Position numbers and translations under genes: made by a program | From: Pseudomonadales bacterium | GTDB lineage: Bacteria > Pseudomonadota > Gammaproteobacteria > Pseudomonadales > JAHRWD01 | Length of the DNA stretch: 64,000 nucleotides | Direction: 5' to 3' | Assembly: GCA_019090315.1 (NCBI GenBank) | Contig: JAHRWD010000014.1 | Location: 66,011-130,010 of the forward strand | The notes under the pieces: model-generated | The model's database searches: none | Seen by the model: the letters and a program-made list of their open reading frames with translations, nothing else | What the model was told of the DNA's origin: nothing | Shown here: positions 9,077-25,378 of the stretch, one piece after another | How the letters are laid out: each line of letters starts with the position of its first letter | How positions within the stretch are numbered: the stretch's first letter is position 1

Positions 9077-9109
9077 AATATATGGGAACTAACAGAGGGA
9101 TTACAAACC

Positions 9110-9361
9110 CTAGTTACAGCCACAACCTCCGCCACTTCCACCTTCGGCACCTCGGGCACCTTCCCGGGCTTGATGAACATGGTGCATATAACTTCCTTCA
9201 ACACCATCGCGATCAAAACTCATAATGGGATCAGCAAGGTTATTTCGCTCGTAGGGTTTAACCCAGGGTTTCGGCATAGAACAGCCACCAAGAACAACCG
9301 TCAGCAATAAATATGCGATAGCGGTTTTAAGGGTTTGTCCGGTAGCGTTCACAAACATCAA
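9110..9361 (-). CDS. DUF4266-like small lipoprotein
   Basis: Has the lipobox VLGGC and the glycine/cysteine C-terminal tail GGSGGGCGCN that I associate with DUF4266. Confidence 0.65.
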   Translation of the reverse strand: MMFVNATGQTLKTAIAYLLLTVVLGGCSMPKPWVKPYERNNLADPIMSFDRDGVEGSYMHHVHQAREGARGAEGGSGGGCGCN

Positions 9362-9363
9362 TT

Positions 9364-9876
9364 CTATTCACGAACCAGCGTTTTTACTTGCTGTGCGTAC
9401 AGCTCTTCATACCCAGGTTTGTAACCCTTATGTAGATAACGCATATTGCCATCACGATCGACCAGAATGGTACTCGGCATCGCATCTACTTTGAACAATT
9501 CTGTAACCCGGTTTTCGGTATCATAAAGAACCGGAAAATTTACCGGATTTTCCGCCAGCATTTCATTTGCTTTTGCGGAATTTTCCTCTACGTTAACACC
9601 CAGTATTGTAAAACCTAGATCCTCATATTTTTCCTGAATCTCACTTAATTCCGGCATCTCCTGCCGACAAGGACCACACCAGGACGCCCAAAAATTTATC
9701 ATCACTACCTGGCCTTTCAGCTCACTCAATCTCAGATTTTCCCCGGTACTGCTCTTCAGGGTAAAATCTGGAGCTGGCGCGTTCGATGCCGCGAAGCTAC
9801 CACTACTAATCAACAGCATTCCTGCCAATATCAGAAGATGTTTCATCAACAAAGAACAACTATTTTTTAACTTCAT
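9364..9876 (-). CDS. TlpA-family periplasmic thiol:disulfide oxidoreductase
   Basis: Has a signal peptide and the WCGPC active site (nt 9667-9681). The thioredoxin fold context reads VVMINFWASWCGPCRQEMP. Confidence 0.85.
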   Translation of the reverse strand: MKLKNSCSLLMKHLLILAGMLLISSGSFAASNAPAPDFTLKSSTGENLRLSELKGQVVMINFWASWCGPCRQEMPELSEIQEKYEDLGFTILGVNVEENSAKANEMLAENPVNFPVLYDTENRVTELFKVDAMPSTILVDRDGNMRYLHKGYKPGYEELYAQQVKTLVRE

Positions 9877-9927
9877 TTTTAATACCTTCTTTCAGAGCAA
9901 GAATGAGAACAACATGATCATCTGGCA

Positions 9928-10599
9928 TCAAAAAAACCAGGTAAGACCACCGGTAAATTCAAGGTTATGACTGGTTTTATCGACACCTAACAAATTCATA
10001 TTGAGCATGTGATCGCGCATATCAAGATGAAACGCAATTTCATCGGTTAGCAATAATCGATAACCAAAACCAAAATTGAGCGTGAAAAATTTGTCACCAG
10101 CAAACTCTGTAGTGCCGGCACCGGTCACCAGATAAAGTTCCGAAACAAAGGTTTTATTTTTGCTAAAAAACACCTCACCAGGAAACAGGTTGTATCCTAC
10201 AGAAACATTGTAGTAGCTGTATTCCCTTTGGTCATCGCTCAACAAATCAACACTACTAAGAATTTCAAAACTGGTTTTTTCAGTTTCCGACAGGCCGTAA
10301 ATACCTTCAACAAAAATTTGCTCGTTTACGTGATAGGCCAGCCTGGCAACAAACACACCATTCACACCAAAATCTTCTACGCTCAAAAGCCCGTAGGAAA
10401 CACCGAATTCAAAATCCTCGGTATCAATGTCTGGCTTTTCGATCTCTGTACGTTCTACCTCAGGCTCAAAATTGTCTGTAGCCGGGAGGGAATCATCCGC
10501 ATGAGATACTGATGTAACACCGACAAAAAGCAGCATCACAAAACAGGATAATCTGGCTAGTGGCTTGATCAGAAAAATACGCTGAATCCGGTTTTCCAT
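9928..10599 (-). CDS. small outer-membrane beta-barrel protein
   Basis: Has a signal peptide ending in SHA, an acidic linker, an amphipathic strand pattern and the C-terminal GGLTWFF. It overlaps the upstream gene by 31 nt. Confidence 0.6.
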   Translation of the reverse strand: MENRIQRIFLIKPLARLSCFVMLLFVGVTSVSHADDSLPATDNFEPEVERTEIEKPDIDTEDFEFGVSYGLLSVEDFGVNGVFVARLAYHVNEQIFVEGIYGLSETEKTSFEILSSVDLLSDDQREYSYYNVSVGYNLFPGEVFFSKNKTFVSELYLVTGAGTTEFAGDKFFTLNFGFGYRLLLTDEIAFHLDMRDHMLNMNLLGVDKTSHNLEFTGGLTWFF

Positions 10600-11417
10600 T
10601 CGTTCACAATCTCATTGTCACTTCTGTTTGTTAAAACAACATGTTGTTTGTAGTCGACACGCCATATAAACCGATCGGTCAGGTATATTTTTACACCCAG
10701 GCCAACGGATACCAACTGATTGGTACTGTTTTTACTCTGCACCAAAGTAGTTTTTGGTGTGGTTTCAATTACCCCGTAACCTAAAAAAACAAAGGGCGAT
10801 ACTCGCCAGTGTGCAAATGGCTGATTAACGATTCCCGCTGACAAAAACTGGCTGTTTGAAAAATTTCCGTTCACCTGTGATAAGGAAACTTCTGCGGAGA
10901 GGTTGGTTGAAAACCGGTAACCAAGATCTATCGACGTCAGCCTTGCTCCGGCGAAGTCCCCAATTGCTACACCTGCTTCAAACGTTCTTCCGCCAAACTC
11001 ATCTTCACCTACATCCGTAACGACAAATTTCTCTCCGGTCAGATGCAAAGTATTTTCCATCTGATCACGACTGACCCAACCACTTTTGCCATTTTTTGTA
11101 ACCACTTTAAACCAGCTTGTTTTTTCCTTGAGAACCTCTACTGATCCGCCTTTTTCAACTACAAAAACAATTGGATAGCCAACACCCGGACCAGTATGCA
11201 GTTCGATATACGGATCCTTTACTTCAACCCAGTTTTTCACACTTTCTATATTGGGCGAAGCCTCTGCCCTGTCATTAAAAGTATCAGGGCCGGCAGTAGA
11301 AACCTCAGTACTGGTTTCACCATATGCTGTCCCGAAAAAAGCAAAATTCATCAGTAGCATCAAGGCTATCAGACTTACTATTTGCAAAATTTTTGTTTGG
11401 AGGTAGTGCCTCGTCAC
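10569..11417 (-). CDS. SH3b-domain protein fused to a C-terminal outer-membrane beta-barrel
   Basis: Has a signal peptide and an SH3-like segment, YIELHTGPGVGYPIVFVVEKGGSVEVLKEKTSWFKVVTKNGKSGWVSRDQM (about nt 11043-11240). A strand-pattern domain follows, ending in KTGFSVFF. GTG start. Confidence 0.6.
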   Translation of the reverse strand: MTRHYLQTKILQIVSLIALMLLMNFAFFGTAYGETSTEVSTAGPDTFNDRAEASPNIESVKNWVEVKDPYIELHTGPGVGYPIVFVVEKGGSVEVLKEKTSWFKVVTKNGKSGWVSRDQMENTLHLTGEKFVVTDVGEDEFGGRTFEAGVAIGDFAGARLTSIDLGYRFSTNLSAEVSLSQVNGNFSNSQFLSAGIVNQPFAHWRVSPFVFLGYGVIETTPKTTLVQSKNSTNQLVSVGLGVKIYLTDRFIWRVDYKQHVVLTNRSDNEIVNEWKTGFSVFF

Positions 11418-11557
11418 CCTTTTTAGCTCTCTCTACACAATGGCTTTAGTATGGACAAGTGTAGATGGAATATCTGGAACTGGCTGGCAATTTTCAGAAC
11501 TATTTCTGTTTGCCAATCAAGTTGTGAATTAGCCCGCAAACGCGATTCCCATTACCA

Positions 11558-14200
11558 CTATTGAGGTGCATCGAACGGGTTATTGTAGTACTGCGCACCA
11601 ATATCCAGCCATTCATAAATCAGTTTTAATTCAGCACCGCTAAGGTAGCTAGCGTGACTGCCGCCGGTTTCAAACAGGCTATAAAACCCAGCGCTGGAAT
11701 TAGCACCCGCTGTACGCATTACCGGGCTAACGGTAATCGTTACGAACACAGGGACCGGATCGCCAGTAATCGGCGGAAACAGTACTAGTTCACCGTCTTC
11801 ATCCACTTCAAATACCTGGTCTCCGTTAATATCCAGCAGTGGTATCTGTTCATCTAACAAGGCCCCGCCGTCCAACACCACGCTATTATCGTTAAACAGC
11901 AGTTCACGATAACTGGTCAGATGTTCAGGCTCATCGCTTGACGGGCCATCACGCAAATCCAGCTGCGCAATGGGCACCTGGGGATCGCCCATTGCATCCT
12001 GCGAGCTATGGCAGCCCTGACAGTTGTTGTCAGCAAGAACAGTAACCATGTCAACATCAAGAACTTCTCGGGTCTGTTGCCAGATCGGGTGGATATGTTC
12101 AGCGTAATTGATGGTAATACGGCAAAGATTGCTCCAGGTTGCCTGGCAAGCCGCAGAGGTAGGTATATCTGTGGTTAAATCGGCGTACTGATATGAAAAT
12201 GAAACATCCTTCGGGCGAACGGTCGGGTCATCGGTCCATTCATCGACAAAGTGGACATCAACCGTCGGTACCCGCACGCCATTGGCATCACTGTAGGTGG
12301 TGGCCATGGTTTCACCCAGATTGGCCAGCAGTGCTGGCTCGGTATTGGGGAATGGATTCCCTCCGACCGGTGCACCCGGGTGTATGGATGGAGCCTCCAT
12401 ATCCGCTCTGCCATGGGGCAGACCACTATTTTGTTGGTGGCAACCCACACATTCCAGCTCTTCGCCTGGTAAGAACTGAATCCAGTTGCCATGTCTGGCG
12501 GTAATCCGTTTCCCCGCTTTGTCCAGCACACTGAATACCAGCGGCACATTGGCAGGCACCTTCATTTTGACCGAACCGTCCGGCTCAATCGGTACATAAC
12601 CGATGATTTCCCGCATCAACTGCTGGGTGCTTCGACCAAAATCCCGTCCATTCAAATCGACCGTATCATCATCAGGGATGGAGACGGACTTAACAATACG
12701 CAAAAACCGCGCTGGCCGATCATCAGCCAGGGTCAGGGCGGGATCAGCAATTGTCGCAATACCGCCAACCCCGTTACTATCAACTCCATCAATGTCGTAC
12801 ACGCTGCGGATATGAATGACCGCTAACTCCTCATCCACCAAACTCGCATCCAGCTCCACGCCACTCTGCTTATCGGCAATCATCGGTGGCAGTGTTCGCT
12901 CCTGCATTACCACCACATCTGTGAAGAACTTGTTTTGCTCGGGAATCACCACCGGCAATCGGGTGTCGTCTGAGCTATCAATCATCCAGATGCCATACAT
13001 CGGCGATGCTTCGGTAGTATCCGGGTCGGCAATATTGTCGTCGCTGCAAAGCAGGTATGTCACCTCCAGCGTATCCGGATCGGTTTCTTGCAGTCGACAC
13101 TGGCTCCAGCTAACTAACATCCGATTGCTGTCGTCATACAAGGGGAAAAATGAGCTGTATCGGCCTGCGACGGATACCCCCTCTTCGGTGTCGATCAGGT
13201 CATCAAAAATTGATGCCTGAGCATTATCAATCGCATCATCGGTATTAATTTTTACAATATCGCCACCATAATGCAGGCTCGACATCGGCTGCAGTAGCGC
13301 CAGAACATCACCCTGCTGGGATTGCTGTACACCCACAAACTGTACCGTCGATCCATCACTGCCGGTATCGTGACTGTTGTGGCCATATAACAAACTGTGC
13401 TCTGTACCATCAGGGTTTGCGGTATAAAGATTGATCTGATTGAGATTGCCAAAGTGATCCCAACGGCTGTATAAAATGGTACCGTCGTTGAGCACCGTTG
13501 GATCCAGATCATGACTGGGGTTAAACGTAATTTGGCGAATATTGCTGCCATCCGAATTCATCACATGCAGCATCATTGCATATTCTTCTCGCTGCTCATC
13601 GAGTGCTGCAAACTGCGGTTTGCTTTCGTCAAGCAGGGTTGCTTTCGATTGACGCTGACGACTGGAGGAAAACAGAATACGTCCATCTGGAAGATAGGTT
13701 GGTGAGATATCATGTCCGGCTTCAGCAGTGATGTCCGACGCGATCACACGCGTCAGGCTACCGCCGGTTAAATCGTACTCCCAGATATTCCATTTTGGTT
13801 GTTCATCATCATCCGCGCCCGCAATATCCGGTGCTCGCATCGAAAACAGAACACGTTCACCATCGTATGAAACCCGCAGATCCTTCACATCGTAAAGCTC
13901 TCCACCGGCAAACACACCATCAGTAATCACCTGATCATCCGCAGAAACAGATGCGCGATCACGGATAATCAGTTGAGCGCCGGGATTAAACTCCACTACC
14001 TCTCGAAGATCCTGTGAAACGGGATCTCCATCTTCATCCACCGGCACCGGCCGCTTTACGTACGCCAGCGCATAATCCACCGCAACCGCATCAGTTTGTT
14101 CATCGGTGCTACCCAGAAGCCCCTGCTCGCAGCCGGATAGTACCGATATCAACGCTAACAAGACTATCGGAATATAGTTTCTACTGAATGAATGCATCAC
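11558..14200 (-). CDS. 880-aa lipoprotein with PD40/TolB-like beta-propeller repeats and two CxxCH motifs (HzsA-related / planctomycete cytochrome-like)
   Basis: Has the lipobox VLSGC and PD40-like repeats (DISPTYLPDGRILFSS, SHDLDPTVLNDGTILYSRW). CVGCH lies at nt 12437-12451 and CQGCH at nt 12008-12022. Confidence 0.7.
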   Translation of the reverse strand: MMHSFSRNYIPIVLLALISVLSGCEQGLLGSTDEQTDAVAVDYALAYVKRPVPVDEDGDPVSQDLREVVEFNPGAQLIIRDRASVSADDQVITDGVFAGGELYDVKDLRVSYDGERVLFSMRAPDIAGADDDEQPKWNIWEYDLTGGSLTRVIASDITAEAGHDISPTYLPDGRILFSSSRQRQSKATLLDESKPQFAALDEQREEYAMMLHVMNSDGSNIRQITFNPSHDLDPTVLNDGTILYSRWDHFGNLNQINLYTANPDGTEHSLLYGHNSHDTGSDGSTVQFVGVQQSQQGDVLALLQPMSSLHYGGDIVKINTDDAIDNAQASIFDDLIDTEEGVSVAGRYSSFFPLYDDSNRMLVSWSQCRLQETDPDTLEVTYLLCSDDNIADPDTTEASPMYGIWMIDSSDDTRLPVVIPEQNKFFTDVVVMQERTLPPMIADKQSGVELDASLVDEELAVIHIRSVYDIDGVDSNGVGGIATIADPALTLADDRPARFLRIVKSVSIPDDDTVDLNGRDFGRSTQQLMREIIGYVPIEPDGSVKMKVPANVPLVFSVLDKAGKRITARHGNWIQFLPGEELECVGCHQQNSGLPHGRADMEAPSIHPGAPVGGNPFPNTEPALLANLGETMATTYSDANGVRVPTVDVHFVDEWTDDPTVRPKDVSFSYQYADLTTDIPTSAACQATWSNLCRITINYAEHIHPIWQQTREVLDVDMVTVLADNNCQGCHSSQDAMGDPQVPIAQLDLRDGPSSDEPEHLTSYRELLFNDNSVVLDGGALLDEQIPLLDINGDQVFEVDEDGELVLFPPITGDPVPVFVTITVSPVMRTAGANSSAGFYSLFETGGSHASYLSGAELKLIYEWLDIGAQYYNNPFDAPQ

Positions 14201-14535
14201 AGCCTTTCGCTCATTGATTTTTTGTTTATGTGGGAGTACGCGGAAGTCAAATAACTGAAAACCGATTTAAACCTGTGAACAAAGTGTATCCGGTCACTCA
14301 CTTATCGCCAGCAAGTGACTTTATTTTTTGTGAACCACTCTGATTTTTCGTATCTATCCCGATCAATAATGTGATCCACACCTCCAAACGAGAGCAGCTC
14401 TACATCTTTCCCATTTTTTTTTCGTATCCTTAAATCCACACAACGTATTGACGCATCGATCAAAGTCATTTTTTTCAGCTATCGTTATTTGATCCATTAT
14501 TTGTAGCTATCAGCCATAGGTCGGGAGCCATTGCT

Positions 14536-15786
14536 ATGAAGCACGGCAGAGTAAAGTCACAAGAAAACCTCCAAAGCAGTGCAGTTTTTGCCTGTTTAAT
14601 TTTACTGTTGAGCGGGCTTTTACCCCACGCTAGCCTTGCGGGTGACCGTGAACAGGCAAAGCGAATACATGATCGTATCGCCGGTATACCACCCAGTCAG
14701 GCGGTCCTTGATACCATGGAAGGATTAGTAGCCGGTGGCGATGCGATAGGTGCCGCAGATGTTGCGATGGAAAACCCGGCATTCTATTCCGTTACCTTAA
14801 AAAATCTGGTGACACCCTGGACCAATGAGTCCCAAACTGTTTTTGCGGGTCTGAATGATTACACAGCAACTGTAATTGGCATCGTCAGGGAAAATTACGA
14901 CTTTAGACGAATTCTCTACGACGACATTCTTTTTGTCGCCAATCCTGCACTGGGTTTAACTCCCTACTCCCGCACCAGCAACGCCCATTACGAACAGATA
15001 GAGGAGCAAAACGTTGACCTGTCTTCCAATGCTGGACTGATCGAAACTACCCAGTCCGCAGTCACAGGGATTCCAGCCAGCGCAGCCGCCGGTGTCACCA
15101 CAACCCGTGCTGCCGCCAAAGCCTTCTTTATCGATGGCACCAACCGAGCGATGTTTCGTTTCACCTTGCTAAACCAACTCTGCACAGACCTGGAAGCGAT
15201 CAAAGATGTGAGCCGCGCCAGTGACCGTATTCCACGGGATGTATCACGAAGCCCTGGTGGCGATAGCCGCATATTCCTGAATGCCTGTATGGGCTGCCAT
15301 ACCGGCATGGATCCAATGAATCAGGCGTTTGCCTACTATGATTTTGAACATGATGTAACCGCTGATCCCGAAGGCAATGATGGTCAACTGGTCTATAACG
15401 ATGTTGGAGAAATTGACGCGGTAACCGGCACGCGTGTGCAGGAGAAATACCATTTCAACAAGGACACGTTTAGTTCAGGCTACATCTCCCTTGATGACAG
15501 CTGGGACAACTACTGGAGAGAGGGACCCAACGCAGCTTTAGGTTGGGCTGACTCAGCACCACTCGGTAGCGGTAATGGCGCAAAAAGCATGGGACAGGAG
15601 CTAGCCAATAGCGATGCATTTGCCAGCTGTCAGGTTAAAAAAGTATTTAAAGCAGTTTGCTTGCGACCCGCGGTGGATGCCACCGATAGAGCTCAGCTTG
15701 CATCGATGACCAGTTCGTTTAAATCCAACGACTATAACCTCAAGCAGGTATTTTCTGAATCTGCTGTTTACTGCATGGGGGAATAA
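14536..15786 (+). CDS. secreted 416-aa protein with one CxxCH motif (DUF1585/DUF1588-like module)
   Basis: The signal peptide ends in ASLAG. CMGCHTGMDPMNQAFAYYDF lies at nt 15286 onward and resembles the C-x-x-C-H-x-x-x-DP motif of planctomycete PSD-type modules (from memory). Confidence 0.6.
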   Translation: MKHGRVKSQENLQSSAVFACLILLLSGLLPHASLAGDREQAKRIHDRIAGIPPSQAVLDTMEGLVAGGDAIGAADVAMENPAFYSVTLKNLVTPWTNESQTVFAGLNDYTATVIGIVRENYDFRRILYDDILFVANPALGLTPYSRTSNAHYEQIEEQNVDLSSNAGLIETTQSAVTGIPASAAAGVTTTRAAAKAFFIDGTNRAMFRFTLLNQLCTDLEAIKDVSRASDRIPRDVSRSPGGDSRIFLNACMGCHTGMDPMNQAFAYYDFEHDVTADPEGNDGQLVYNDVGEIDAVTGTRVQEKYHFNKDTFSSGYISLDDSWDNYWREGPNAALGWADSAPLGSGNGAKSMGQELANSDAFASCQVKKVFKAVCLRPAVDATDRAQLASMTSSFKSNDYNLKQVFSESAVYCMGE

Positions 15787-15848
15787 TGATGAATCTTTTA
15801 AATATTCCAGCAATAAAGGCATCCAATTTTGTTTTTGGTGCTGCAACA

Positions 15849-18356
15849 ATGAGCAAAAAATTACTGACCGTTGTTGCTGCGGTTGCATTCCTTAATGGCT
15901 GTAGTGCCGGCGGTGGTGAAGAAAACCAGTCATTGGCCAACAACACTACATCGGTGACGTCCAACTATTCGGGGCCAGCTCCCGCCACTGCCGATGTACA
16001 ACAGTTCAAATTGAACCTGTGGGACAATCTGGTAGCGGAAAACCGTTGCGGTACCTGTCACTCTACCGGTGGACAGGCCCCCACCTTTGTTCAAAGCGAT
16101 GATATCAATATCGCCTATGCAGTAACCAATCCGCTGGTTGACCTGGAAACACCCGATGATTCCACGCTAGTAACCAAAGTTGCCGGTGGACACAACTGCT
16201 GGCTCACCAGCGACAGTGCCTGTGGCGATATCATTTCTGCCTACATTAGCGCCTGGGCAGGTGGAAGTGGCTCAATTTCCAATTCGGTGGTACTTACAGC
16301 ACCTGATATTCATGAACCGGGCAGTAGCAAAACCTTCCCGGCGGACGTCGATGACAGCCTGTTTGAAACCACGGTTTACCCAATACTTGTGGACAACTGC
16401 GCTGGATGCCACTCGGAAGCTGCTGCCACCCCAGAGTCTCCCTTCTTTGCCAGTGCTGACGTTGATATCGCCTATGATGCGGCAAGAAGTAAAATATCCC
16501 TGGATGATACCGAACAGTCACGCCTGGTGATCCGGGTTCGCAGTGAATTCCATAACTGCTGGACTGCGGATTGCGGAAGTGATGCGGATGAGCTGGCTGC
16601 CGCAATCGATCTATTGAGTGGAGCCATTGTAGTTGCACCGATCGATCCTGCTTTAGTGCTCAGTAAAGCACTAACACTGGTTGACGATGGTATTGTATCC
16701 AGCGGTGGTGGACGTCATGAAACTAACGTCATCGCACTCTATCAATTCAAAACCGGCGAAGGGTTCACCGCTTTTGATACCAGTGGTGTAAATCCGGCAT
16801 TAGACCTGACACTGACTGATGATGTTAGCTGGGTGGGTGGCTGGGGCATAGCCATTGCCAACGGCAAAGCCCAGGGCTCCACTACTGCCAGTAAAAAACT
16901 TTACGACCTGATTAGCGCAACCGGTGAGTACGCGATTGAAGCCTGGGTAGCACCTGGCAACGTCACCCAGGAAGGCCCGGCAGGTATTGTCAGCTATTCA
17001 GGGGGTTCCAGTACTCGCAACTTTACCCTTGGGCAGACACTCTATAACTACAACAGCCTAAATCGAAGCACCACCACTGGTGCCGACGGTGAACCGGCAG
17101 TTTCAACCCCTGATGCGGATGAAGTGCTTCAGGCAACGCTGCAACATGTTGTGGTCAATTACGACCCGATAAATGGCCGACAGATATACGTAAATGGTGT
17201 ATTGGAATCCGCAGCCGATACGGAAGCGGGAGGCACACTTGTCGACTGGGACGATAGTTTTGCGCTGGCGATAGGCAACGAACCATCAAATGATCGAGTC
17301 TGGCAGGGCAGCGTACGCATGATCGCTATCCATAATCGTATCCTCAACACAGACGAGATATTGCAGAACTTTACCGTAGGTGTAGGGCAACGTTTCTACC
17401 TGCTATTTAGCGTTGCGCACCTAATTGATGTACCAGAAAGCTATATCATTTTTGAAGTCAGCCAGTTTGATAACTACAGCTATCTGTTTAATCAGCCATT
17501 CTTCCTGAGCCTTGATCCGGACGCGGCACCCGTCAATATTCCCGTCCAAGGTATGCGAATTGGCATCAACAGCAAGGAAGCGGTTGCGGGGCAAAGTTAT
17601 GTCAACCTTAATCTTTTGCTCAATGAAACCGATTACGGTGAAGGGGGCCAGGTACTCTCCCCTCTTGGTACCGTTATCGCGCTGGAGAACGGACCGGTAT
17701 CTGACCAGTTTTTCCTCACCTTTGATCTTATTGGCGATCAAGAATATGCACGTACAGCGCCGACGGTTCCCGTACCTGCACCTCCAGGTGATCTGGACCC
17801 AGTATCCGATATCGGTGTGCGCACTTTCAGTGAGGTAAATGCTTCAATGGCGGCGATAACCGGAGTGGATCCCACCACCCCCGCTGTTGCGGCGACCTAT
17901 CAAACCATTCTTCAGCAACTTCCGCCGGTAGAGGATATTAGCAGCTTCCTCTCTACCCATCAGATGGCGGTTACTCAGCTTGCGATTCGTTACTGCGATG
18001 AACTGGTTGAGAGCCCAACATTGCGTGATAGCTTTTTCGGCGCTGGTTTTGGTTTTGAACAAAATGTAGCCACTGCATTTGGCAGCGGCGACTCAGCAGC
18101 GAAAAACCAGATCGTCACACAGATTTTTAACCAAATGGTTGGCTTGCCGGATGGTTCCGGAACGGCCCTGTCTTCTACAACAGATATAGCGAGCCTGAAA
18201 GCAGAGCTAATCGGCCCTGCGGCAACCAACCCTGACAACCTGTATGACCGATTAACCGGTAGCTGCCCCACGGGATGCGATGCGGAACGAACCAAAACCG
18301 TCGTTAAGGCGATGTGTGCATCAACCCTGGGTAGCGCGGCCATTCTGGTTCAATAA
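15849..18356 (+). CDS. lipoprotein with two CxxCH cytochrome-like modules, a LamG (concanavalin-like) domain and a C-terminal domain of unknown function
   Basis: The internal ATG at 15849 gives MSKKLLTVVAAVAFLNGC (lipobox). The ORF could alternatively start at 15786, overlapping the upstream stop by 1 nt. CGTCH is at 16047-16061 and CAGCH at 16398-16412. The LamG-like block is at about 16800-17375 and ends in WQGSVRMIAIHNRILNTDEI. Confidence 0.65.
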   Translation: MSKKLLTVVAAVAFLNGCSAGGGEENQSLANNTTSVTSNYSGPAPATADVQQFKLNLWDNLVAENRCGTCHSTGGQAPTFVQSDDINIAYAVTNPLVDLETPDDSTLVTKVAGGHNCWLTSDSACGDIISAYISAWAGGSGSISNSVVLTAPDIHEPGSSKTFPADVDDSLFETTVYPILVDNCAGCHSEAAATPESPFFASADVDIAYDAARSKISLDDTEQSRLVIRVRSEFHNCWTADCGSDADELAAAIDLLSGAIVVAPIDPALVLSKALTLVDDGIVSSGGGRHETNVIALYQFKTGEGFTAFDTSGVNPALDLTLTDDVSWVGGWGIAIANGKAQGSTTASKKLYDLISATGEYAIEAWVAPGNVTQEGPAGIVSYSGGSSTRNFTLGQTLYNYNSLNRSTTTGADGEPAVSTPDADEVLQATLQHVVVNYDPINGRQIYVNGVLESAADTEAGGTLVDWDDSFALAIGNEPSNDRVWQGSVRMIAIHNRILNTDEILQNFTVGVGQRFYLLFSVAHLIDVPESYIIFEVSQFDNYSYLFNQPFFLSLDPDAAPVNIPVQGMRIGINSKEAVAGQSYVNLNLLLNETDYGEGGQVLSPLGTVIALENGPVSDQFFLTFDLIGDQEYARTAPTVPVPAPPGDLDPVSDIGVRTFSEVNASMAAITGVDPTTPAVAATYQTILQQLPPVEDISSFLSTHQMAVTQLAIRYCDELVESPTLRDSFFGAGFGFEQNVATAFGSGDSAAKNQIVTQIFNQMVGLPDGSGTALSSTTDIASLKAELIGPAATNPDNLYDRLTGSCPTGCDAERTKTVVKAMCASTLGSAAILVQ

Positions 18357-18406
18357 TGAAACCACACTATAATTTTTGTACGAATATTCTCTTTTAGGAA
18401 TTGATC

Positions 18407-20005
18407 ATGTCCAGAATATCGAAAGGTCTGCACATCGATGAGCCGCTACGACACGCGGCCCATAAACGCCCCATTTCACGCCGTGATTTTGTTTCGCAGG
18501 GGTTTATGGCAGGCGCGGGTACCGTGGTCGGCACATCAATGTTCAGTATGTTTGCCAATCCACGTAGCGCCATGGCAGCACTGTCACCGGAATTTGAAGG
18601 TGAAGGCGGCCTAAAGGATATCTGTGGCATCAAGGGTGCCGGTGCCGGAAAAATACCATTTATCTGTTTTGATCTTGCCGGTGGTGCCAACATTGCTGGT
18701 TCAAATGTCCTGGTCGGTCAGCAAGGTGGTCAGCTAGATTTTCTCAGTACATCTGGCTACAGCAAGTTGGGACTACCTGGGGATATGATTCCGCCTATTC
18801 TCAATCCGGATACCGGTCTGAGTGACTTTATCAATACTGAGCTGGGACTGGCATTTCACTCTGATAGTGCATTTTTACGAGGAATTATTGAGCGTACTTC
18901 CCCGACCACCCGTGCCAATATCAATGGTGCGGTTATCCCTGCCCGTTCCAATAACGATACCGGTAATAACCCCCACAACCCTATGTACGGTATAGCAAAA
19001 GCTGGATCAGATGGCTCTTTACTAAACCTGATCGGCTCATCCAACTCTGAATCCGGTGGCAACTCAATGGCCCCCGCAGCATTGGTCGATCCTGAAGCAC
19101 GACCCTCCAAGATAGACCGCCCCAGTGATGTTACCGGTCTTGTGGACATCGGTGATCTGACGGAGTTATTGGGCCAGGAAGATGCGGTTGCGGTGATGGA
19201 ATCGATCTACCGAATCAGCAATAGTAAACTTGGTCAGGTCGATACCCAGCTCACCAGTGCTGCTGATGCACTCGTTAAGCAACTGGTCGAATGTGGCTAT
19301 ATAAAAAGTGCCGATATTGCAGACCGGTTTGGAGATCCGTCTGAGCTGAATCCAGAGCTGGATACCAACATCGTTGCTCCTAGTGGTGCTATTTTTACAA
19401 CTGATGAGTTTAACGCTGATAGTGAATTCAGGAAAACAGCTTCGGTAATGAAACTGGTTACCAATGGTTATGCCGGTGCCGGTACCATTACTATGGGCGG
19501 TTATGATTACCACACCGGTAATCGTTCAACCGGAGAGCAAAGGGATCTACGTGCCGGTCGTTGTATGGGCGCCTGCCTTGAATATGCGGCGCGAGCTGGA
19601 GTACCACTGATGATGTATGTATTCAGTGACGGTTCGGTATCCAGTAACGGTATGATTGATGAGTCTGAAAATGGCCGTGGAAAAGGGGTTTGGACTAGTG
19701 ATAACGGCTCTACCGCTACTCCATTCTTTTTAGTCTACAACCCCGGTGGCCGTCCCCAGTTGATGGGGGCTCCAGAGGAGCAGGCGATGCACCAGCAGAT
19801 CGGCTACATGAGTTCTGATGCATCGGTAAGCACCGCTTCATCCCCGGCGGCCAACAACGTGAACTTGCTCGTCAACACCGTACTCCTCAACTACATGGCA
19901 TTACATGGAGAACAGGAAAATTTTGGCACCCTATTTCCAGGCCATGGCCTGGGGAATGCTGCCAGCCAGGATGCGATGACCGCATTTGAGCGCGGCACAA
20001 TATAA
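18407..20005 (+). CDS. Tat-exported DUF1501-like (sulfatase/alkaline-phosphatase fold) protein
   Basis: The twin-arginine motif SRRDFV lies at nt 18476-18493 and is followed by a hydrophobic stretch. DUF1501-like blocks are present (FICFDLAGGANIAG, MGGYDYHTGN, VFSDGSV, TSDNGST). The ATG at 18407 is preceded by agga. Confidence 0.6.
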   Translation: MSRISKGLHIDEPLRHAAHKRPISRRDFVSQGFMAGAGTVVGTSMFSMFANPRSAMAALSPEFEGEGGLKDICGIKGAGAGKIPFICFDLAGGANIAGSNVLVGQQGGQLDFLSTSGYSKLGLPGDMIPPILNPDTGLSDFINTELGLAFHSDSAFLRGIIERTSPTTRANINGAVIPARSNNDTGNNPHNPMYGIAKAGSDGSLLNLIGSSNSESGGNSMAPAALVDPEARPSKIDRPSDVTGLVDIGDLTELLGQEDAVAVMESIYRISNSKLGQVDTQLTSAADALVKQLVECGYIKSADIADRFGDPSELNPELDTNIVAPSGAIFTTDEFNADSEFRKTASVMKLVTNGYAGAGTITMGGYDYHTGNRSTGEQRDLRAGRCMGACLEYAARAGVPLMMYVFSDGSVSSNGMIDESENGRGKGVWTSDNGSTATPFFLVYNPGGRPQLMGAPEEQAMHQQIGYMSSDASVSTASSPAANNVNLLVNTVLLNYMALHGEQENFGTLFPGHGLGNAASQDAMTAFERGTI

Positions 20006-20018
20006 AAAATCGTTGTGA

Positions 20019-20042
20019 ACGGGAGAGCATGGTAGCTCTCCC
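20019..20042. terminator. hairpin between convergent genes (DUF1501-like and nrdB)
   Basis: Perfect 9-bp stem, cgggagagc-atggta-gctctcccg. The flanking U-tract is weak on both strands. Confidence 0.4.
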
Positions 20043-20069
20043 GCAAACATAGTATTTCCCAAGCTAAGG

Positions 20070-21212
20070 TCATGCCCAAACCAGTGCCCCGCCGGTCTGA
20101 TATTCGGTAACTCTTGTCTCGAAGAAGTTTTTCTCTTTGCGCAGATTGGCCTGTTCATCTAACCAGGGCAGGCTATTTTCCGCGCCGGGGAATGGCTCCT
20201 CAAAACCCAGTGAACGGGAACGTCGGTTGGCCATAAAACGAAACTGTTCAACGTGATCTTCTTTTACGTAACCCAGTATCGGGTTTTGTAACAAATAATC
20301 CGCATATTCAATTTCAGCGGCCTCCGCTTCATCCCATATCTCTCGCACCGCAACCGGATCTAACTGCAAATTCTCTTCCTTAAAAATCTGCTTTAATACG
20401 CGGATACCAAAGGAGCAGTGCATCACTTCGTCCCGCATAATGTACTGCAGTTGTTCGGCGGTTCCTTTCATCAGCCCACGGCGTTGCAGCGCAAATATTG
20501 GGCTAAAACCATTGTAAAACCAGCAGCCTTCAAACACTGCGGCGAAGAAAAAATAAGCCAGTGCAAAGTTCTCAAGTTCGGCACGGTCGGTCAGATCAAT
20601 ATTGGGCCGCAGGATTGAATCCAGCCTTTTATTACAGATCTGTATTTTGCGATGAATCTGCGGCACTACCCGGTAGCGATTATAAATTTCACCCTGATCA
20701 AGCCCCATCGATTCAATACAGTGTTGATAGGTCCAGGTGTGTAATGCTTCTTCATAGACCTGTCGCGCCTGATAAATTTGCAACTCCGGCGCGCTCATTT
20801 TTTCCATCACCGCGAGGCCGATATTACGCATCGCCAAAATATCCGCAGTGGTCAAATAAGCCAGCACAGTTTCGTATACGTGACGCTCTTCGGTGGTGAG
20901 TTTGTGCTGGTAATCGTGTAGATCCTGCGCCATGTTAATGTCCAATGGCGTCCAGTGATTCTTGTTGGCGTTGATAAAATAGTTCCAGGCCCAGGGATAT
21001 TTAAACGGCGCTAGCTGGTTAATATCTGTTTGTCCATTTACTACCCGCTTGTCTTCGGCGTTCACTGGTTTTGGTGTTTCTACTTCACTGTTAAGACCAA
21101 TCTCAGTTTGATTCGCCGCAACCGGTTCAGCGGATTCATCAATTGTTTTTTGTGTTTGCTCTGCCACTTTTGGGCTTACTGGCGCTGCCAGCGGATCATC
21201 CCAGTTCAACAT
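20070..21212 (-). CDS. nrdB: class Ia ribonucleotide reductase beta subunit
   Basis: Ferritin-like R2 protein with a Pseudomonas-type N-terminal extension (MLNWDD...KRVVNGQTDINQLAPFKYPWAW). It lies directly downstream of nrdA. Confidence 0.9.
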   Translation of the reverse strand: MLNWDDPLAAPVSPKVAEQTQKTIDESAEPVAANQTEIGLNSEVETPKPVNAEDKRVVNGQTDINQLAPFKYPWAWNYFINANKNHWTPLDINMAQDLHDYQHKLTTEERHVYETVLAYLTTADILAMRNIGLAVMEKMSAPELQIYQARQVYEEALHTWTYQHCIESMGLDQGEIYNRYRVVPQIHRKIQICNKRLDSILRPNIDLTDRAELENFALAYFFFAAVFEGCWFYNGFSPIFALQRRGLMKGTAEQLQYIMRDEVMHCSFGIRVLKQIFKEENLQLDPVAVREIWDEAEAAEIEYADYLLQNPILGYVKEDHVEQFRFMANRRSRSLGFEEPFPGAENSLPWLDEQANLRKEKNFFETRVTEYQTGGALVWA

Positions 21213-21256
21213 AATTTTTCTCCCGAACTTTTCATTATTTAGTATTCATAGTTTGA

Positions 21257-24085
21257 CTACTGACAGGCTTCGCAGTCTGGATCCAGAATCGAGCAAACTT
21301 GAGGTTCACTTTGAGTTTCGGAGGGCTGATTAGCGGTTGTTTTTTCCAGATGGGTTGCCCCCAAAGAACGCAGGTAATAGGTAGTTTTAAGACCACGCAC
21401 CCAGGCTAATTTATATAAGTTATCAAGTTTTACACCGGAGGGTTCTGCCATATACAGGTTCAGGCTTTGGGCCTGATCCAACCATTTTTGACGACGCGAG
21501 CCCGCCTCAATCAACCAGCGGGAATCAATCTCGAAAGCGGTGGCGTAGAGTGCTTTGATATCTGCCGGTACACGTTCAATAGAAGCCACCGATCCATCAA
21601 AATATTTAAGATCACTGACCATCACCGCATCCCACAAACCAAGTTTTTTGAGATCATCAACAAGGTAAGGATTCACAGTAGTGAACTCGCCGGACAGGTT
21701 GGATTTCACATAAAGATTCTGATATATCGGTTCAATCGATTGGGAAACACCGCATATATTAGAGATAGTTGCGGTGGGCGCTATCGCTAGGCAGTTGCTA
21801 TTACGCATGCCGTGTAAATCGATACGGTTTCGCAAACTTTGCCAATCCAGAGTTTCTGTTTGATCAACCTGAAGATAGTCGCCACGCTGATCCGCCAACC
21901 TCTGCAATGAATCAATCGGCAAAACTCCCTGACTCCAGAGTGAACCCTGATAACTGGAATAACGCCCACGCTCCTGCGCCAGATCACAGGATGCAGAGAT
22001 GGCCTGATAGCTCACCATCTCCATCGACTGATCAGCAAAACTGACCGCTTCTTCGCTGCTATAGGCGATACCCAATTTATACAGGCAATCCTGAAAACCC
22101 ATGATGCCAAGGCCAACCGGTCGATGGCGCAGATTGGAGTTGCGCGCCTGGGGTACGTTGTAAAAATTGTAGTCAATGACGTTGTCGAGCATACGCATTG
22201 CAGTGCTAATGGTGCGCTGTAACTTTGCTTGATCGAGTCCATTTTCATCGACGTGCGCAGGCAGGTTTACCGAACCCAAATTACACACTGCAATTTCATC
22301 GGCGCTGGTATGCAGGGTTATTTCGGTACAAAGATTTGAGCTGTGTACCACACCCACATGCTGATTGGTATAGCGAATATTGCAGGGGTCTTTGAAGGCA
22401 ATCCAGGGGTGGCCTGTTTCAAACAGCATTCCCAGCATCTTGCGCCATAGTTCTTCCGCCTTGACGGTTTTGTATAAACGCATTTCACCACGGCTGGCGC
22501 GCTGCTCAAACTCAACATAGGCGCGGTCAAATTCAGCGCCACAGAGTTCGTGCAACGTCGGCACCTCTTCCGGGGAAAACAGGGTCCAGTCACCCTGCTC
22601 CGCAACCCGTTTCATAAACAGATCCGGTACCCAGTTGGCGCTGTTCATATCGTGGGTGCGGCGGCGTTCGTCACCGGTATTTTTGCGTAACTCCAGAAAT
22701 TCTTCGATGTCGATATGCCAGGTTTCCAGATAGGCGCAGACAGCCCCCTTTCGCTTACCGCCCTGATTGACCGCAACCGCAGTATCGTTGGCCACCTTTA
22801 GGAAAGGCACTACACCCTGGGATACGCCGTTGGTGCCTTTGATTGCAGCGCCAAGGCCACGTACTGAGGTCCAGTCATTACCTAATCCGCCGGCGTATTT
22901 GGATAACAGTGCGTTGTCTTTCACCGCATCGTAGATGCCCGCCAGATCATCGGGAACCGTGGTCAGATAACAGCTGGATAATTGCGGTCGTGGAGTGCCT
23001 GAATTAAACAACGTTGGAGTTGAGCACATAAAATCAAACGAGCTAAGCAGCTGGTAAAACTCAATCGCACGGGCTTCCCGATCGATTTCATTAATCGCCA
23101 ATCCCATCGCCACCCGCATAAAAAATGCCTGGGGTAGCTCGATGCGAATCTGACCACTGTGAATAAAATAACGGTCGTAAAGGGTCTGCAAACCCAGGTA
23201 GGTAAATTGCAGGTCACGCTCTGGTTTGATCGCTTTGGTCATTTTTTTCAAATCATAACGGCTTAGTTCCGGATCCAGCAGTTCCAGCTCCACTGCCCGA
23301 TTGATATAGGCGGTAAAGTAATCTCTATAGCACTCGGCCATTTCCCCAACGTTGGGGGATTCCATACGATTGTGAACAAAACTGAGCGCTTCGCTGCGCA
23401 TGTTATCGAGTAACAAACGTGCGGCCAGGTAGCTGTATTCCGGCTCCTGATCAATGCGGGTGCGGGCGCTCATCACCAATGCGGTACGTAGATCTTCATC
23501 ACGCATACCATCGAACAGGCTGCGCTGCAGGTCTTCAAATATCTGTTCTGGATCAACCTCGTTTAAATCCTGGCTGGCTTCGACAATGCGGCGTTTTAAC
23601 TGTTCGAGATTAAGCGCTGAACTGGAACCATCGGCATAAACAATCTGCAGGGGTTTGACTCCATCATCCGACTGGCTTGCTACTTCATCCCGCTGTTCTG
23701 CGTGGCGTGCCCGGTACAGCACATAAGCACGGGCGACTTTGTGCTCGCCGCTACGCATCAGCGCCAGCTCTACTTGATCCTGAATATCTTCAATATGCAC
23801 TGTGCCGTTGTTGCCGTGGCTGCGAAACAACCCCGCGGTGATCTGCTCTGATAATTGCGCGACTAGCTGGTGAATGCGGCTGGAGTCATCACCATTAGCC
23901 TCTTCAGTAGCCAAAAACGCTTTGGTGATTGCGACTACAATTTTGTTTTTATCGAAGGGGGTACGAATGCCGTTGCGACGAATAACAAAGTAATCTGACG
24001 CACCGGACTGGGCGGGTATGTTGTCGGAGGATAGCGGTGGAACAGGGGTAGCACTATTGGCAGTAAGACTGTTTTGCAAAGGCAT
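21257..24085 (-). CDS. nrdA: class Ia ribonucleotide reductase alpha subunit
   Basis: Contains ATP-cone regions and a catalytic core, with the C-terminal redox pair CEAC. I prefer the ATG at 24085 because GGGAGG sits 5 nt upstream. The ORF track start at 24142 is a TTG. Confidence 0.9.
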   Translation of the reverse strand: MPLQNSLTANSATPVPPLSSDNIPAQSGASDYFVIRRNGIRTPFDKNKIVVAITKAFLATEEANGDDSSRIHQLVAQLSEQITAGLFRSHGNNGTVHIEDIQDQVELALMRSGEHKVARAYVLYRARHAEQRDEVASQSDDGVKPLQIVYADGSSSALNLEQLKRRIVEASQDLNEVDPEQIFEDLQRSLFDGMRDEDLRTALVMSARTRIDQEPEYSYLAARLLLDNMRSEALSFVHNRMESPNVGEMAECYRDYFTAYINRAVELELLDPELSRYDLKKMTKAIKPERDLQFTYLGLQTLYDRYFIHSGQIRIELPQAFFMRVAMGLAINEIDREARAIEFYQLLSSFDFMCSTPTLFNSGTPRPQLSSCYLTTVPDDLAGIYDAVKDNALLSKYAGGLGNDWTSVRGLGAAIKGTNGVSQGVVPFLKVANDTAVAVNQGGKRKGAVCAYLETWHIDIEEFLELRKNTGDERRRTHDMNSANWVPDLFMKRVAEQGDWTLFSPEEVPTLHELCGAEFDRAYVEFEQRASRGEMRLYKTVKAEELWRKMLGMLFETGHPWIAFKDPCNIRYTNQHVGVVHSSNLCTEITLHTSADEIAVCNLGSVNLPAHVDENGLDQAKLQRTISTAMRMLDNVIDYNFYNVPQARNSNLRHRPVGLGIMGFQDCLYKLGIAYSSEEAVSFADQSMEMVSYQAISASCDLAQERGRYSSYQGSLWSQGVLPIDSLQRLADQRGDYLQVDQTETLDWQSLRNRIDLHGMRNSNCLAIAPTATISNICGVSQSIEPIYQNLYVKSNLSGEFTTVNPYLVDDLKKLGLWDAVMVSDLKYFDGSVASIERVPADIKALYATAFEIDSRWLIEAGSRRQKWLDQAQSLNLYMAEPSGVKLDNLYKLAWVRGLKTTYYLRSLGATHLEKTTANQPSETQSEPQVCSILDPDCEACQ

Positions 24086-24337
24086 GGAAGCCTCCCGAAG
24101 TAACCTGATTGATGGAATACTGGATTCCTTAAAAAGGCTCAAAACGGTGGATCAATCGTGCGGGAGGGGACGATAGGCGGGAGGAAGAATTGAACTACCC
24201 GCTATCACCACCAGACACCTTGACGCGAGGTTTTGGGCAGTTTGTTCATTGGCGGGTATCGGACTGAGAAAATAGCTAATCAGCTATTTTCAACACCGTT
24301 GCGCGACAGTCCCGGATTCTAACCGGCTTCCCCACAA

Positions 24338-24429: not shown

Positions 24430-25326
24430 TCAGGGCGTCTGATTCATCTCTCTAGCCAGCTCGATAAAGGCCCGCAGGTAACTGGTTTGAGCATCGTTTT
24501 CCCGTACCGCAGCGTACAACATACCCTTCATACCCTGCTGGCCCAACTGCCGAGTCAGTAGTCTGTTTTCCGATAGTGGGTCCCGCAATATCCAGTCGGG
24601 TAATGCGGCAACACCCTGCTTTACCGCCACTAGCTGCAAGATCATGGTGGTGAGCTCTACCCTGCGCACACGTTCTGGTTCAACCTCGGCGGGGTTTAAA
24701 AACCGTTTGAAAATATCCAGCCTGCCCCTATCCACCGGATAGGTAATCAGGGTTTGCTGCGCAAGATGTGTGGGCTCTATCCAGTCCTGTTCCAGCAATG
24801 GATGATCATTCGCCAGCGCTAGCAGAGATTCATATTCAAACAGCTCAATGTATTCGATATCCGGCAGATCAACCCGGTCTGACGAGATCACCAGATCCAC
24901 TTCACCGTGGCTGAGAGCGGGCAGCGGTTCGAAGCTCATGCTCATCCGAATATCCACTTCAACATCGGGCCAGTGCCGGTGGTATTGCTCCAGCGTCGGC
25001 AGTAACCATTCAAAACAGGCGTGGCACTCGATGGTGATATGCAGCCGCCCAGTATCCCCGGCGGACAGATTGCGCAGTTTGGTTTCGGTACGTTCTACCA
25101 GCGGCAGTACCTGCTCTGCCAGTGTAACCAGCTGTTGCCCAGCGTGGGTCAGGCGCAGCGGTTTGTGATTACGCAGAAACAGCACCACATCAAAATAGTT
25201 CTCGATCGCTTTGATTTGATGGGATAGCGCCGAGGGTGTCAGGTGCAGCAGTTCGGCGGCCTGTATCAGGTTTTCGCTTCGATCAATTGCGCGCAGGGAG
25301 CGAAGGTGTCTTAGCTCAAGAAACAT
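24430..25326 (-). CDS. metR: LysR-family transcriptional activator MetR
   Basis: Has a LysR N-terminal HTH (LIQAAELLHLTPSALSHQIKAIE) and is divergent from metE, the classical arrangement. Confidence 0.8.
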   Translation of the reverse strand: MFLELRHLRSLRAIDRSENLIQAAELLHLTPSALSHQIKAIENYFDVVLFLRNHKPLRLTHAGQQLVTLAEQVLPLVERTETKLRNLSAGDTGRLHITIECHACFEWLLPTLEQYHRHWPDVEVDIRMSMSFEPLPALSHGEVDLVISSDRVDLPDIEYIELFEYESLLALANDHPLLEQDWIEPTHLAQQTLITYPVDRGRLDIFKRFLNPAEVEPERVRRVELTTMILQLVAVKQGVAALPDWILRDPLSENRLLTRQLGQQGMKGMLYAAVRENDAQTSYLRAFIELAREMNQTP

Positions 25327-25378
25327 AGCGAACTCCTAAGAAGAGCGGCTCTGGGGAAATAGCGGCTCACAAAAAAAA

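Follow-up and report, generated by a model that had tools for sequence, protein, structure and literature searches.

A conserved nine-gene envelope locus of marine Gammaproteobacteria with predicted c-type cytochromes and a predicted Tat-exported, remote relative of DUF1501

Few unexplained gene families of the Planctomycetes and Verrucomicrobia are as large as those of the DUF1501 and PSCyt/PSD proteins, for which no function has been described (PMC3542564, PMC5615132). In these phyla, DUF1501 proteins, which carry signals for twin-arginine translocation (Tat), are paired with PSCyt1/PSCyt2/PSD1 proteins (Kamneva et al. 2012, PMC3542564), and the fusion of LamG to PSCyt/PSD proteins beside DUF1501 has been documented (PMC3542564). 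Genes of the PSCyt3/PSD2 type adjoin another family of uncharacterised genes than the PSCyt2 genes do (PMC5615132). In the literature, we found no functional study of DUF1585, DUF1552, DUF1588, DUF1592, DUF1595 or DUF1587. The partner of the PSCyt3/PSD2-type genes is presumably DUF1552, not DUF1501. Further comparable systems are the DUF3570/Trx/DUF4266 module, which was described as a thiol-linked extracytosolic electron transfer system that occurs with ApbE (Méheust et al. 2021, PMC8238504), and Cbp2D of Cellvibrio japonicus, which combines a carbohydrate-binding module with the c-type cytochrome domains X183 and X132 and a PSD3/DUF1587 domain (Branch et al. 2021, PMC8981238). Its CjX183 domain binds haem and reduces lytic polysaccharide monooxygenases (LPMOs), which are secreted metalloenzymes (PMC8981238). 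In this study, we analysed 64,000 nucleotides (nt) from a Pseudomonadales bacterium (assembly GCA_019090315.1, contig JAHRWD010000014.1, positions 66,011 to 130,010 of the forward strand), hereafter the window, in which three adjacent genes encode a protein with one CxxCH motif (P1), a LamG-containing lipoprotein with two CxxCH motifs (P2) and a protein with a twin-arginine signal (P3). A first-pass annotation, made from the letters of the window, had referred to the pairing of PSCyt/PSD proteins with DUF1501 or DUF1552, and this pairing is indeed on record, with its function uncharacterised (PMC3542564, PMC5615132). No description of the locus itself was found in the literature.

The unit to which the trio belongs consists of nine genes (7922-20005), not three. 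We tentatively propose, as a reading that falls a little short of an even chance, that it encodes an outer-membrane-tethered redox complex with a metalloenzyme of the alkaline-phosphatase fold, the trio being the catalytic core of a nine-gene extracytoplasmic machine. P3 would be a metal-dependent enzyme that folds, and probably gains its metal, in the cytoplasm and leaves via Tat; the C-terminal domain of P2 would tether it at the inner face of the outer membrane, electrons would be exchanged between P3 and three c-type haems of P1 and P2, and the LamG domain of P2 would position a substrate that is polymeric or resembles a glycan. The further contribution of the divergent operon would be three outer-membrane barrels, a propeller lipoprotein with two haems and a thiol relay, which would run from TlpA through the CXC lipoprotein DUF4266 to DUF3570 and may either keep the CxxCH or Cys sites reduced or send reducing power to the outer membrane. 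The net outcome would be a redox transformation at the outer membrane, in which an exogenous compound is oxidised or reductively cleaved, with expression possibly under CRP-type catabolite control in many lineages. The uncharacterised PSCyt/PSD pairing was known before; what is new is that a PSCyt3/PSD2-type partner is combined with a DUF1501-like protein and that both are joined to six further envelope genes.

A conserved nine-gene locus

The genes for DUF3570, DUF4266, TlpA, an OMP_myx_plus barrel, an SH3 protein with a barrel and a lipoprotein similar to the alpha subunit of hydrazine synthase (HZS-alpha-like) lie on one strand, and the genes for P1, P2 and P3 are divergent from them (Table 1). 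A tblastn comparison of the window proteins with 82 fetched loci revealed that the order and orientation of all nine genes were the same wherever the flank sufficed, and the earlier treatment of the trio as a complete unit was therefore abandoned; the nitroreductase and ribonucleotide reductase flanks were not conserved. The three genes of the trio are conserved jointly, as they were adjacent in all 69 orthologous loci that reached P1, and the HZS-alpha-like gene was syntenic in 66 of the 82 loci, which is every locus that reached it. P3 is the most conserved member, with a typical identity to the window protein of approximately 70%, compared to approximately 60% for P1, 51% for P2, 48% for the HZS-alpha-like protein and 40-45% for the barrels. 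All nine products have Sec, lipoprotein or Tat signals. The lipoboxes of P2, the propeller protein and DUF4266 read LNGC, LSGC and LGGC, and none of the three has Asp at position +2, so that, by the E. coli rule, these lipoproteins would go to the outer membrane.

The locus is spread across hundreds of marine Gammaproteobacteria. At least 589 species-representative genomes contain P3-like genes, and among the matches listed all 80 were gammaproteobacterial, the carriers including Alteromonadaceae, Kangiellaceae, Microbulbifer, Shewanella, Colwellia, Marinobacter, Woeseiaceae, Chromatiales, Sedimenticola and Thiodiazotropha. Cultured strains of Shewanella, Marinobacter, Alteromonas and Microbulbifer, all of them genera with available genetic tools, are among the genomes with the locus, and these bacteria bring a first phenotype, an analysis of cofactors and a structure within practical reach. 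Each locus fetched had one copy of the P3 locus and no copy was present on the plasmids of PLSDB, whereas planctomycete genomes hold many DUF1501 genes (PMC3542564).

In relatives at 30-41% identity, the recurring core consists of a P1-like protein of approximately 400 residues with one CxxCH, a lipoprotein of approximately 245 residues and the P3-like gene, with the lipoprotein gene directly upstream of the latter in distant lineages; one of these core loci came from a metagenome-assembled genome of the Bdellovibrionota. Neither the propeller protein nor the DUF3570 module was observed in these distant loci. In BLASTP comparisons, the distant 400-residue protein matched P1 at E=1e-78 to 1e-89, the 245-residue lipoprotein matched residues 675-853 of P2 at E=1e-10 to 1e-17, and a downstream CxxCH protein of 450-564 residues, which was present in loci L205 and L207, matched the haem modules of P2 (residues 87-275) at E of approximately 3e-13. 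Because its C-terminal domain and its haem modules match separate proteins in the distant loci, P2 is a fusion of two ancestral partners with LamG. This reverses the direction given in the first-pass annotation, in which the locus was seen as a compact version split over three polypeptides; relative to the distant relatives, in which separate genes flank the P3-like gene, P2 is fused. The same comparisons show that the association between P3 and CxxCH proteins is an old one.

P3, DUF1501 and the alkaline-phosphatase fold

P3 had been described as DUF1501-like. Searches of Pfam (E<=0.1), NCBIfam and the PDB sequences returned no match for P3, the family profile likewise had none in PDB, and a Pfam scan of 10 P3 relatives (29-36% identity) remained empty at E<=1, so that membership of DUF1501 was not upheld. 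The family is large, with more than 8000 homologues, which share 66-75% identity across orders in the fetched genome loci, and 1331 representatives at 50% clustering in an exhaustive search. Its recognition has annotation value since these representatives have neither a Pfam nor an NCBIfam model and are misnamed 'GspF'. This label, which some sources attach to P3 homologues, was rejected as a misannotation: no T2SSF or other Pfam domain was found, and a soluble alpha/beta protein is predicted behind the Tat signal.

For the profile comparisons, genuine DUF1501 genes were pulled from metagenomes by the WGEFGRTP motif and confirmed by Pfam at E of approximately 1e-80. Using hhalign, the P3 family matched DUF1501 at P=2.1e-4 and 2.4e-4, with a probability of 44-46% over 57-58 columns centred on GGYDYH of P3 and WDxH of DUF1501, versus P=0.13-0.66 for four unrelated alignments that served as negative controls; DUF1501 and DUF1552 matched each other at P=1e-3. 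A relaxed alignment of P3 and DUF1501 was colinear over the full length and comprised the Tat signal, strand 1 with GG, DxH, FSDGS/WGEFG and GKGVW/GRDHW. Together with the alkaline-phosphatase-superfamily folds described below, these results preserve the remote part of the earlier claim, and P3 appears to be a remote DUF1501 relative with an alkaline-phosphatase-like core that stands outside the family. The P3/DUF1501 and PSCyt links were seen by profile-profile comparison only, and when the P1, P2 and P3 profiles were searched against the open reading frames (ORFs) of 120 metagenome loci with DUF1501, every match was either insignificant or local to CxxCH. The profile of genuine DUF1501 had no relative in PDB and, therefore, there is no solved reference structure. 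Because P1 is of the PSCyt3/PSD2 type, DUF1552 (PF07586, HXXSHH) was also considered as the true relative of P3 and was rejected, as the hhalign match (P=0.027; 0.59 with a single sequence) covered the Tat signal only and there was no Pfam match. In a planctomycete-like metagenome contig (CEUN01115393.1, locus L146), two DUF1501-like ORFs (WGEFGRTP; CGEMGRTP) and a DUF1552 gene occur with a sulfatase-like ORF and a PSCyt-type ORF, which is apparently interrupted, and show how densely such modules can be packed.

P3 shares with DUF1501 (PF07394) the Tat signal, a size of about 450-530 residues, a DxH block after the central strand that is followed by a long helix and a strand, and a gene position beside CxxCH proteins that may bear Laminin_G_3; the function of both is uncharacterised. 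P3 differs in that the DUF1501 hallmarks GGPSHxD, GEFGRTP and GRDHW are replaced by GGAN...QxD, SDGS and GKGVW, in that it is approximately 100 residues longer, in that its partner P1 is PSCyt3/PSD2-like and not PSCyt2/PSD1, and in that it sits within a nine-gene locus. The first-pass annotation had read GGAN as a DUF1501 site in which the Asp after GG became Asn. This does not hold because DUF1501 reads GGP[SP]HxDxxD at this point, and in the P3 counterpart, GGANIAG...QLDF, only GG is clearly kept; Q111-x-D113 of P3 falls opposite H-x-D after a 13-residue insertion, in a part of the alignment that has low confidence.

Residue numbers of P3 count the 534 residues from TTG 18401. The twin Arg (nt 18479-18484) lies in SRRDFV and is followed by a hydrophobic stretch and AMA; it was invariant in 53 of 53 relatives, down to 29% identity, and Tat export of P3 is predicted. 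The region ahead of it (residues 1-28; 18401-18484) is conserved too: His21 occurs in 52 of the 53 relatives, to approximately 30% identity, and close relatives also keep Pro15 and Pro24. Cleaved signal peptides do not usually show such conservation, which suggests that a dedicated chaperone recognises the region or that it has a function ahead of export. In the same 53 diverse relatives, R27, R28, C75, G94, G95, D186, D369, Y370, H371, D410, G411, D434 and Q466 were invariant (D369-Y-H371 at nt 19505-19513), and position 91 was Asp or Glu in 52. Of the 534 positions of P3, 196 are at least 97% conserved. In the 53 relatives, positions 183 and 409, which were Ser or Thr throughout save for one Val at 183, are conserved nucleophile candidates.

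An AlphaFold model (AF2) that was based on the 53-sequence alignment reaching 29% identity attained a predicted local distance difference test score (pLDDT) of 86 and a predicted template modelling score (pTM) of 0.84, whereas a shallow alignment of 70-83% identical sequences gave a pLDDT of only 48. All of the top 50 Foldseek matches of the model in PDB belonged to the alkaline-phosphatase superfamily, including TAB5 and E. coli alkaline phosphatase, cofactor-independent phosphoglycerate mutase (iPGM), steroid and carrageenan sulfatases and ENPP6, and an alkaline-phosphatase-superfamily-like fold is predicted for P3. As may be expected of this superfamily, strand 1 is predicted to end in an acidic residue, a central strand to be followed by DxH and the next strands by Asp (D410, D434); in the sequence and the model, D/E91, D369, H371 and D410 all lie at the ends of predicted strands. 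P3 departs from it in its very weak scores (best E=4.7e-3, TM 0.15-0.25), in having no sequence-level match and in having no identifiable nucleophile.

Since every Foldseek match is a hydrolase or mutase of this superfamily, P3 might be an ordinary hydrolase or transferase (sulfatase-, phosphatase- or phosphodiesterase-like) that acts on a glycan or ester held by LamG and serves nutrient scavenging, while the haem proteins and the thiol relay belong to maturation or an unrelated step. We consider this quite unlikely. The YVFSDGS of P3 does resemble the SDHG block of sulfatases and phosphatases, as these families are generally known, but strand 1 is followed by no conserved nucleophile, either Ser/Thr or CxPxR. 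LamG is a carbohydrate-binding fold, the three outer-membrane barrels could be uptake pores and the CRP-like sites suggest catabolite control, yet no conserved transporter or glycoside hydrolase adjoins the locus. In Verrucomicrobia, PSCyt genes lie near sulfatase genes and carry carbohydrate-binding modules (PMC5615132). Here, the five invariant CxxCH motifs and the strict synteny of TlpA make it difficult to regard these proteins as bystanders, and the pairing of P3-like with CxxCH proteins persists to approximately 30% identity.

Predicted haem proteins, the thiol relay and the proposed mechanism

The single CxxCH of P1 (residues 251-255, nt 15286-15300) is 100% conserved and four further Cys are 97-99% conserved. 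The C-terminus of P1 (residues 347-405) resembles PSD2 (DUF1585) at E=7e-4 and 19.7 bits, which is below the Pfam cut-off of 25.8. Within the P1 family, the PSD2 match was present in 23 of 23 proteins (best 4.8e-6), some of which have a precomputed PF07624 call, and a PSCyt3 (DUF1588) match around the CxxCH-DP block in 13 of 23, always sub-threshold (best 0.032). Against the PSCyt3-PSD2 end of planctomycete reference proteins (PSCyt1-PSD3-PSD5-PSD4-PSCyt3-PSD2), which were taken from metagenomes and verified with Pfam, hhalign gave P=1.7e-4 at the PSD2 end. P1 thus appears to carry a remote PSCyt3/PSD2 end. P2 has two modules of approximately 115 residues, each with CxxCH...HNCW...C (CxxCH at nt 16047-16061 and 16398-16412). 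The Cys and His of these motifs are all 99-100% conserved, and the haem module matches PSCyt1 at P=2.7e-4 in hhalign. The LamG-like block that had been noticed earlier is Laminin_G_3 (PF13385) at residues 376-525 (nt 16911-17360; E=1.5e-18, 67.9 bits versus a cut-off of 27.6), and a Cys-containing C-terminal domain occupies residues 675-853 (nt 17808-18344). The relation to PSCyt/PSD proteins that had been suggested for the trio therefore stood in its remote form, through the PSCyt3/PSD2 end of P1 and the PSCyt1-like modules of P2, and not at the level of the Pfam thresholds, below which P1 remained.

The DUF1552-paired PSCyt1-PSD3-PSD5-PSD4-(LamG)-PSCyt3-PSD2 proteins are accordingly similar to the trio in the CxxCH-DP block and C-terminus of P1, in the PSCyt1-like haem module of P2, in its LamG, which occurs in one type-A protein, and in having a Tat protein as partner. 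They differ in that P3 is unlike DUF1552 beyond the Tat signal, in that Pfam detected none of PSD3, PSD4 and PSD5 in P1 or P2, and in that the domains are spread across two genes in another order in the window. A PDB sequence search with P2 and with the P1 profile gave no match, CjX183 being included for P2.

The 880-residue product of the HZS-alpha-like gene has a lipobox Cys24 that is 100% conserved and two CxxCH motifs (nt 12437-12451 and 12008-12022), both 100% conserved in 66 sequences. It matched Pfam HZS_alpha (E=3.8e-16) and PD40, and its best PDB match was 5C2V_A (E=5.8e-6) over the 65 residues of the haem-binding stretch only. Identity as hydrazine synthase was rejected as the NCBIfam hydrazine_alpha score was 47 bits versus a cut-off of 800 and only the middle domain matched. 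P1, P2 and this propeller protein are predicted c-type cytochromes, which puts three predicted haem sites in the trio, whose three CxxCH motifs were 99-100% conserved in 68-70 aligned sequences.

Catalysis may, in principle, reside in the haem proteins instead, with the dihaem propeller, or the haems of P1 and P2, acting as a peroxidase or small-molecule oxidoreductase and P3 as a non-catalytic scaffold or substrate-binding subunit. The propeller protein has two invariant CxxCH motifs and shares its haem-binding middle domain with hydrazine synthase alpha, where we take the middle-domain haem (5C2V) to be the catalytic one, and the similarity of P3 to enzymes of the alkaline-phosphatase superfamily is weak. 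We nevertheless regard this possibility as improbable because it is P3 that is conserved most, with invariant Asp and His residues where a metal site is expected, and because the distant loci retain P1-, P2- and P3-like genes and not the propeller protein. Moreover, proteins that take up a cofactor as they fold in the cytoplasm are typically exported by Tat (PMC3542564).

In every CxxCH of the locus, the His is as invariant as the Cys, and this, together with the similarity to cytochrome c-type domains, weighs against a haem-free reading. In such a reading, which we consider highly improbable, the locus would be a thiol/disulfide relay from TlpA through the CXC of DUF4266 to CxxC-containing proteins, which would serve envelope protein folding or stress defence. 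TlpA (WCGPC), DUF4266 (CGC) and the many conserved Cys pairs fit a relay of this kind, and a DUF3570/Trx/DUF4266 set is on record as a system for thiol-linked electron transfer (PMC8238504); the similarities in Pfam and PDB, by contrast, are to cytochrome c-type domains, and haem binding has been demonstrated for a related X183 domain (PMC8981238).

The thiol module itself resembles the described ApbE/DUF3570/thioredoxin-like/DUF4266 module in that DUF3570, a CXC-ending DUF4266 and a thioredoxin-fold protein are adjacent. The CxxC of TlpA is 98-100% conserved, and the DUF4266 C-terminus, GGGCGCN, was identical in six orthologues. Unlike that module, the locus has no ApbE domain among its nine genes and no DsbD gene in its conserved part, and the [S/T]GA[S/T] flavinylation sites of DUF3570 (residues about 76-90) read SSAS (ISSASIDV) and STAS (VSTAS), with the Gly replaced; in 4 of 12 orthologues the first site is SGAS. 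It is, furthermore, always joined to the trio and the dihaem propeller protein. The DUF3570/DUF4266/TlpA module can thus exist without ApbE, attached to what would be a haem/alkaline-phosphatase-fold system. Cbp2D offers a characterised precedent for the proposed complex, as in this gammaproteobacterial secreted protein cytochrome domains with a single CxxCH each occur together with a PSD-type domain and a carbohydrate-binding module, and its X183 domain donates electrons to a secreted metalloenzyme (PMC8981238). The partner of Cbp2D, however, is a copper LPMO and not an alkaline-phosphatase-fold protein; the resemblance is one of logic, and no sequence match was found between P2 and CjX183.

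Several points weigh against the tethered redox complex that we propose. The link of P3 to DUF1501 is local (57-58 confident columns at a probability of approximately 45%), the fold match is weak, and no conserved Ser, Thr or Cys could be assigned as the nucleophile; the 53 relatives have neither a conserved Ser/Thr at residues 116-118 nor a CxPxR (formylglycine) motif. We know of no redox enzyme in the alkaline-phosphatase superfamily, so that electron transfer from haem to P3 would be without precedent, nor, to our knowledge, is any association with haem proteins known there. The haem proteins could also serve a partner other than P3, such as the propeller protein, and the best CRP-like site of the window itself has three mismatches. 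That the locus represents a previously unrecognised class of envelope oxidoreductase, in which c-type haems are electronically connected to a metal centre of the alkaline-phosphatase fold that acts by redox chemistry on a substrate from the environment, is for us an unlikely though serious possibility. If it were true, the same principle would explain the very large and so far unexplained DUF1501/PSCyt expansions in Planctomycetes and Verrucomicrobia.

Reading frames, promoter region and flanking genes

The coordinates of the locus are collected in Table 1. The three ORFs of the first-pass annotation, with the 1-nt overlap at 15786, the alternative start at 15849 and the gap of approximately 50 nt, are all present in the sequence, as are the motifs that it quoted: CMGCHTGMDPMNQAFAYYDF in P1, CGTCH and CAGCH in P2, and SRRDFV, FICFDLAGGANIAG, MGGYDYHTGN and TSDNGST in P3. 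A GGAG ribosome-binding site, which is kept in relatives, precedes the ATG of P1, and the final A of its TAA stop (15784-15786) is the first base of the ATG at 15786, ahead of which lies a Shine-Dalgarno-like GGGGGA run. The second ATG of P2, at 15849, opens MSKKLLTVVAAVAFLNGC. The choice between the two starts is ambiguous, and the same mature lipoprotein results from both; the lipobox Cys39 (nt 15900-15902) was 99% conserved in 70 aligned sequences, and the sequence upstream of the lipobox was variable among 69 orthologues. P3 most likely starts at ATG 18407, 50 nt past the P2 stop and with AGGA 7 nt upstream, which gives 532 residues.

Table 1. Genes and other features of the nine-gene locus in the window
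Feature	Positions	Strand	Description
DUF3570 protein	7922-9076	-	384 residues; Pfam DUF3570 E=4.5e-38
DUF4266 small lipoprotein	9110-9361	-	Ends CGCN (CXC motif); Pfam DUF4266 E=8e-23
TlpA/redoxin thiol:disulfide oxidoreductase	9364-9876	-	Periplasmic; WCGPC; Pfam Redoxin, AhpC-TSA; position conserved
Outer-membrane beta-barrel, OMP_myx_plus type	9928-10599	-	223 residues; NCBIfam TIGR04565 E=6.2e-43; position conserved
SH3 + outer-membrane beta-barrel	10569-11417	-	282 residues; Pfam SH3_3, OMP_b-brl; position conserved
HZS-alpha-like lipoprotein	11558-14200	-	880 residues; PD40 beta-propeller and hydrazine-synthase-alpha middle domain; two CxxCH
Intergenic promoter region, HZS-alpha-like gene to P1	14201-14535		Conserved block common to close relatives
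P1	14536-15786	+	ORF, 416 residues; Sec-exported
P2	15786-18356	+	ORF, 856 residues from ATG 15786; lipoprotein
P3	18407-20005	+	532 residues; predicted Tat export; full ORF 18401-20005
GC-rich hairpin GGGAGAGC-atggta-GCTCTCCC	20021-20042		Between the convergent P3 and ribonucleotide reductase beta genes

The GC-rich hairpin behind P3 is the likely end of the operon, judged from its sequence; it was absent from the list of the consensus terminator scan. Scans of 7200-20400 for sigma-70 promoters and terminators gave matches not above the chance level, and an Rfam scan of 7000-20500 found no riboswitch or RNA family. In the divergent promoter, CRP-like TGTGA-N6-TCACA sites (consensus AAcTGTGA-N6-TCACAaaa) were enriched: 37 of 63 loci had a site with at most two mismatches, versus 16-20% of the controls, and four had a perfect site, versus 0.2%. 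Among the consensus sequences scanned in these 63 loci, the CRP-like sites alone stood out; FNR was marginal and Fur, PhoB, OxyR, ArcA, IscR, Zur, NtrC, CueR and sigma-54 showed no enrichment. The CRP-like sites hint at catabolite control. The window and its closest relatives share a conserved block, AAAGTGTATC..TCACTCA.TTATCGCCAGC...TTTTGTGA.CCACTCT, which is unlike the CRP site.

The class I ribonucleotide reductase beta and alpha genes (20070-24142, minus strand) lie directly downstream and are convergent with P3; this position is common only to the closest relative (L210) and thus places them outside the conserved locus. They are followed by a LysR-type regulator that is divergent from metE (24430-27818). 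Two ORFs on the minus strand, at 37865-41194 (1109 residues) and 41481-42566 (361 residues), had no Pfam match at E<=1e-6 and adjoin a 580-residue alpha/beta-hydrolase ORF; in one relative (L208), a similar trio, which consists of a 773-residue protein with no Pfam match, a GerE/Abhydrolase protein of 581 residues and a 361-residue protein with no Pfam match, is encoded near the conserved cluster. A run of short ORFs on the minus strand (55120-62062), which includes a TolB homologue (58825-60156; TolB_N, PD40), looks like an ordinary Tol-Pal cluster that is unrelated to the locus.

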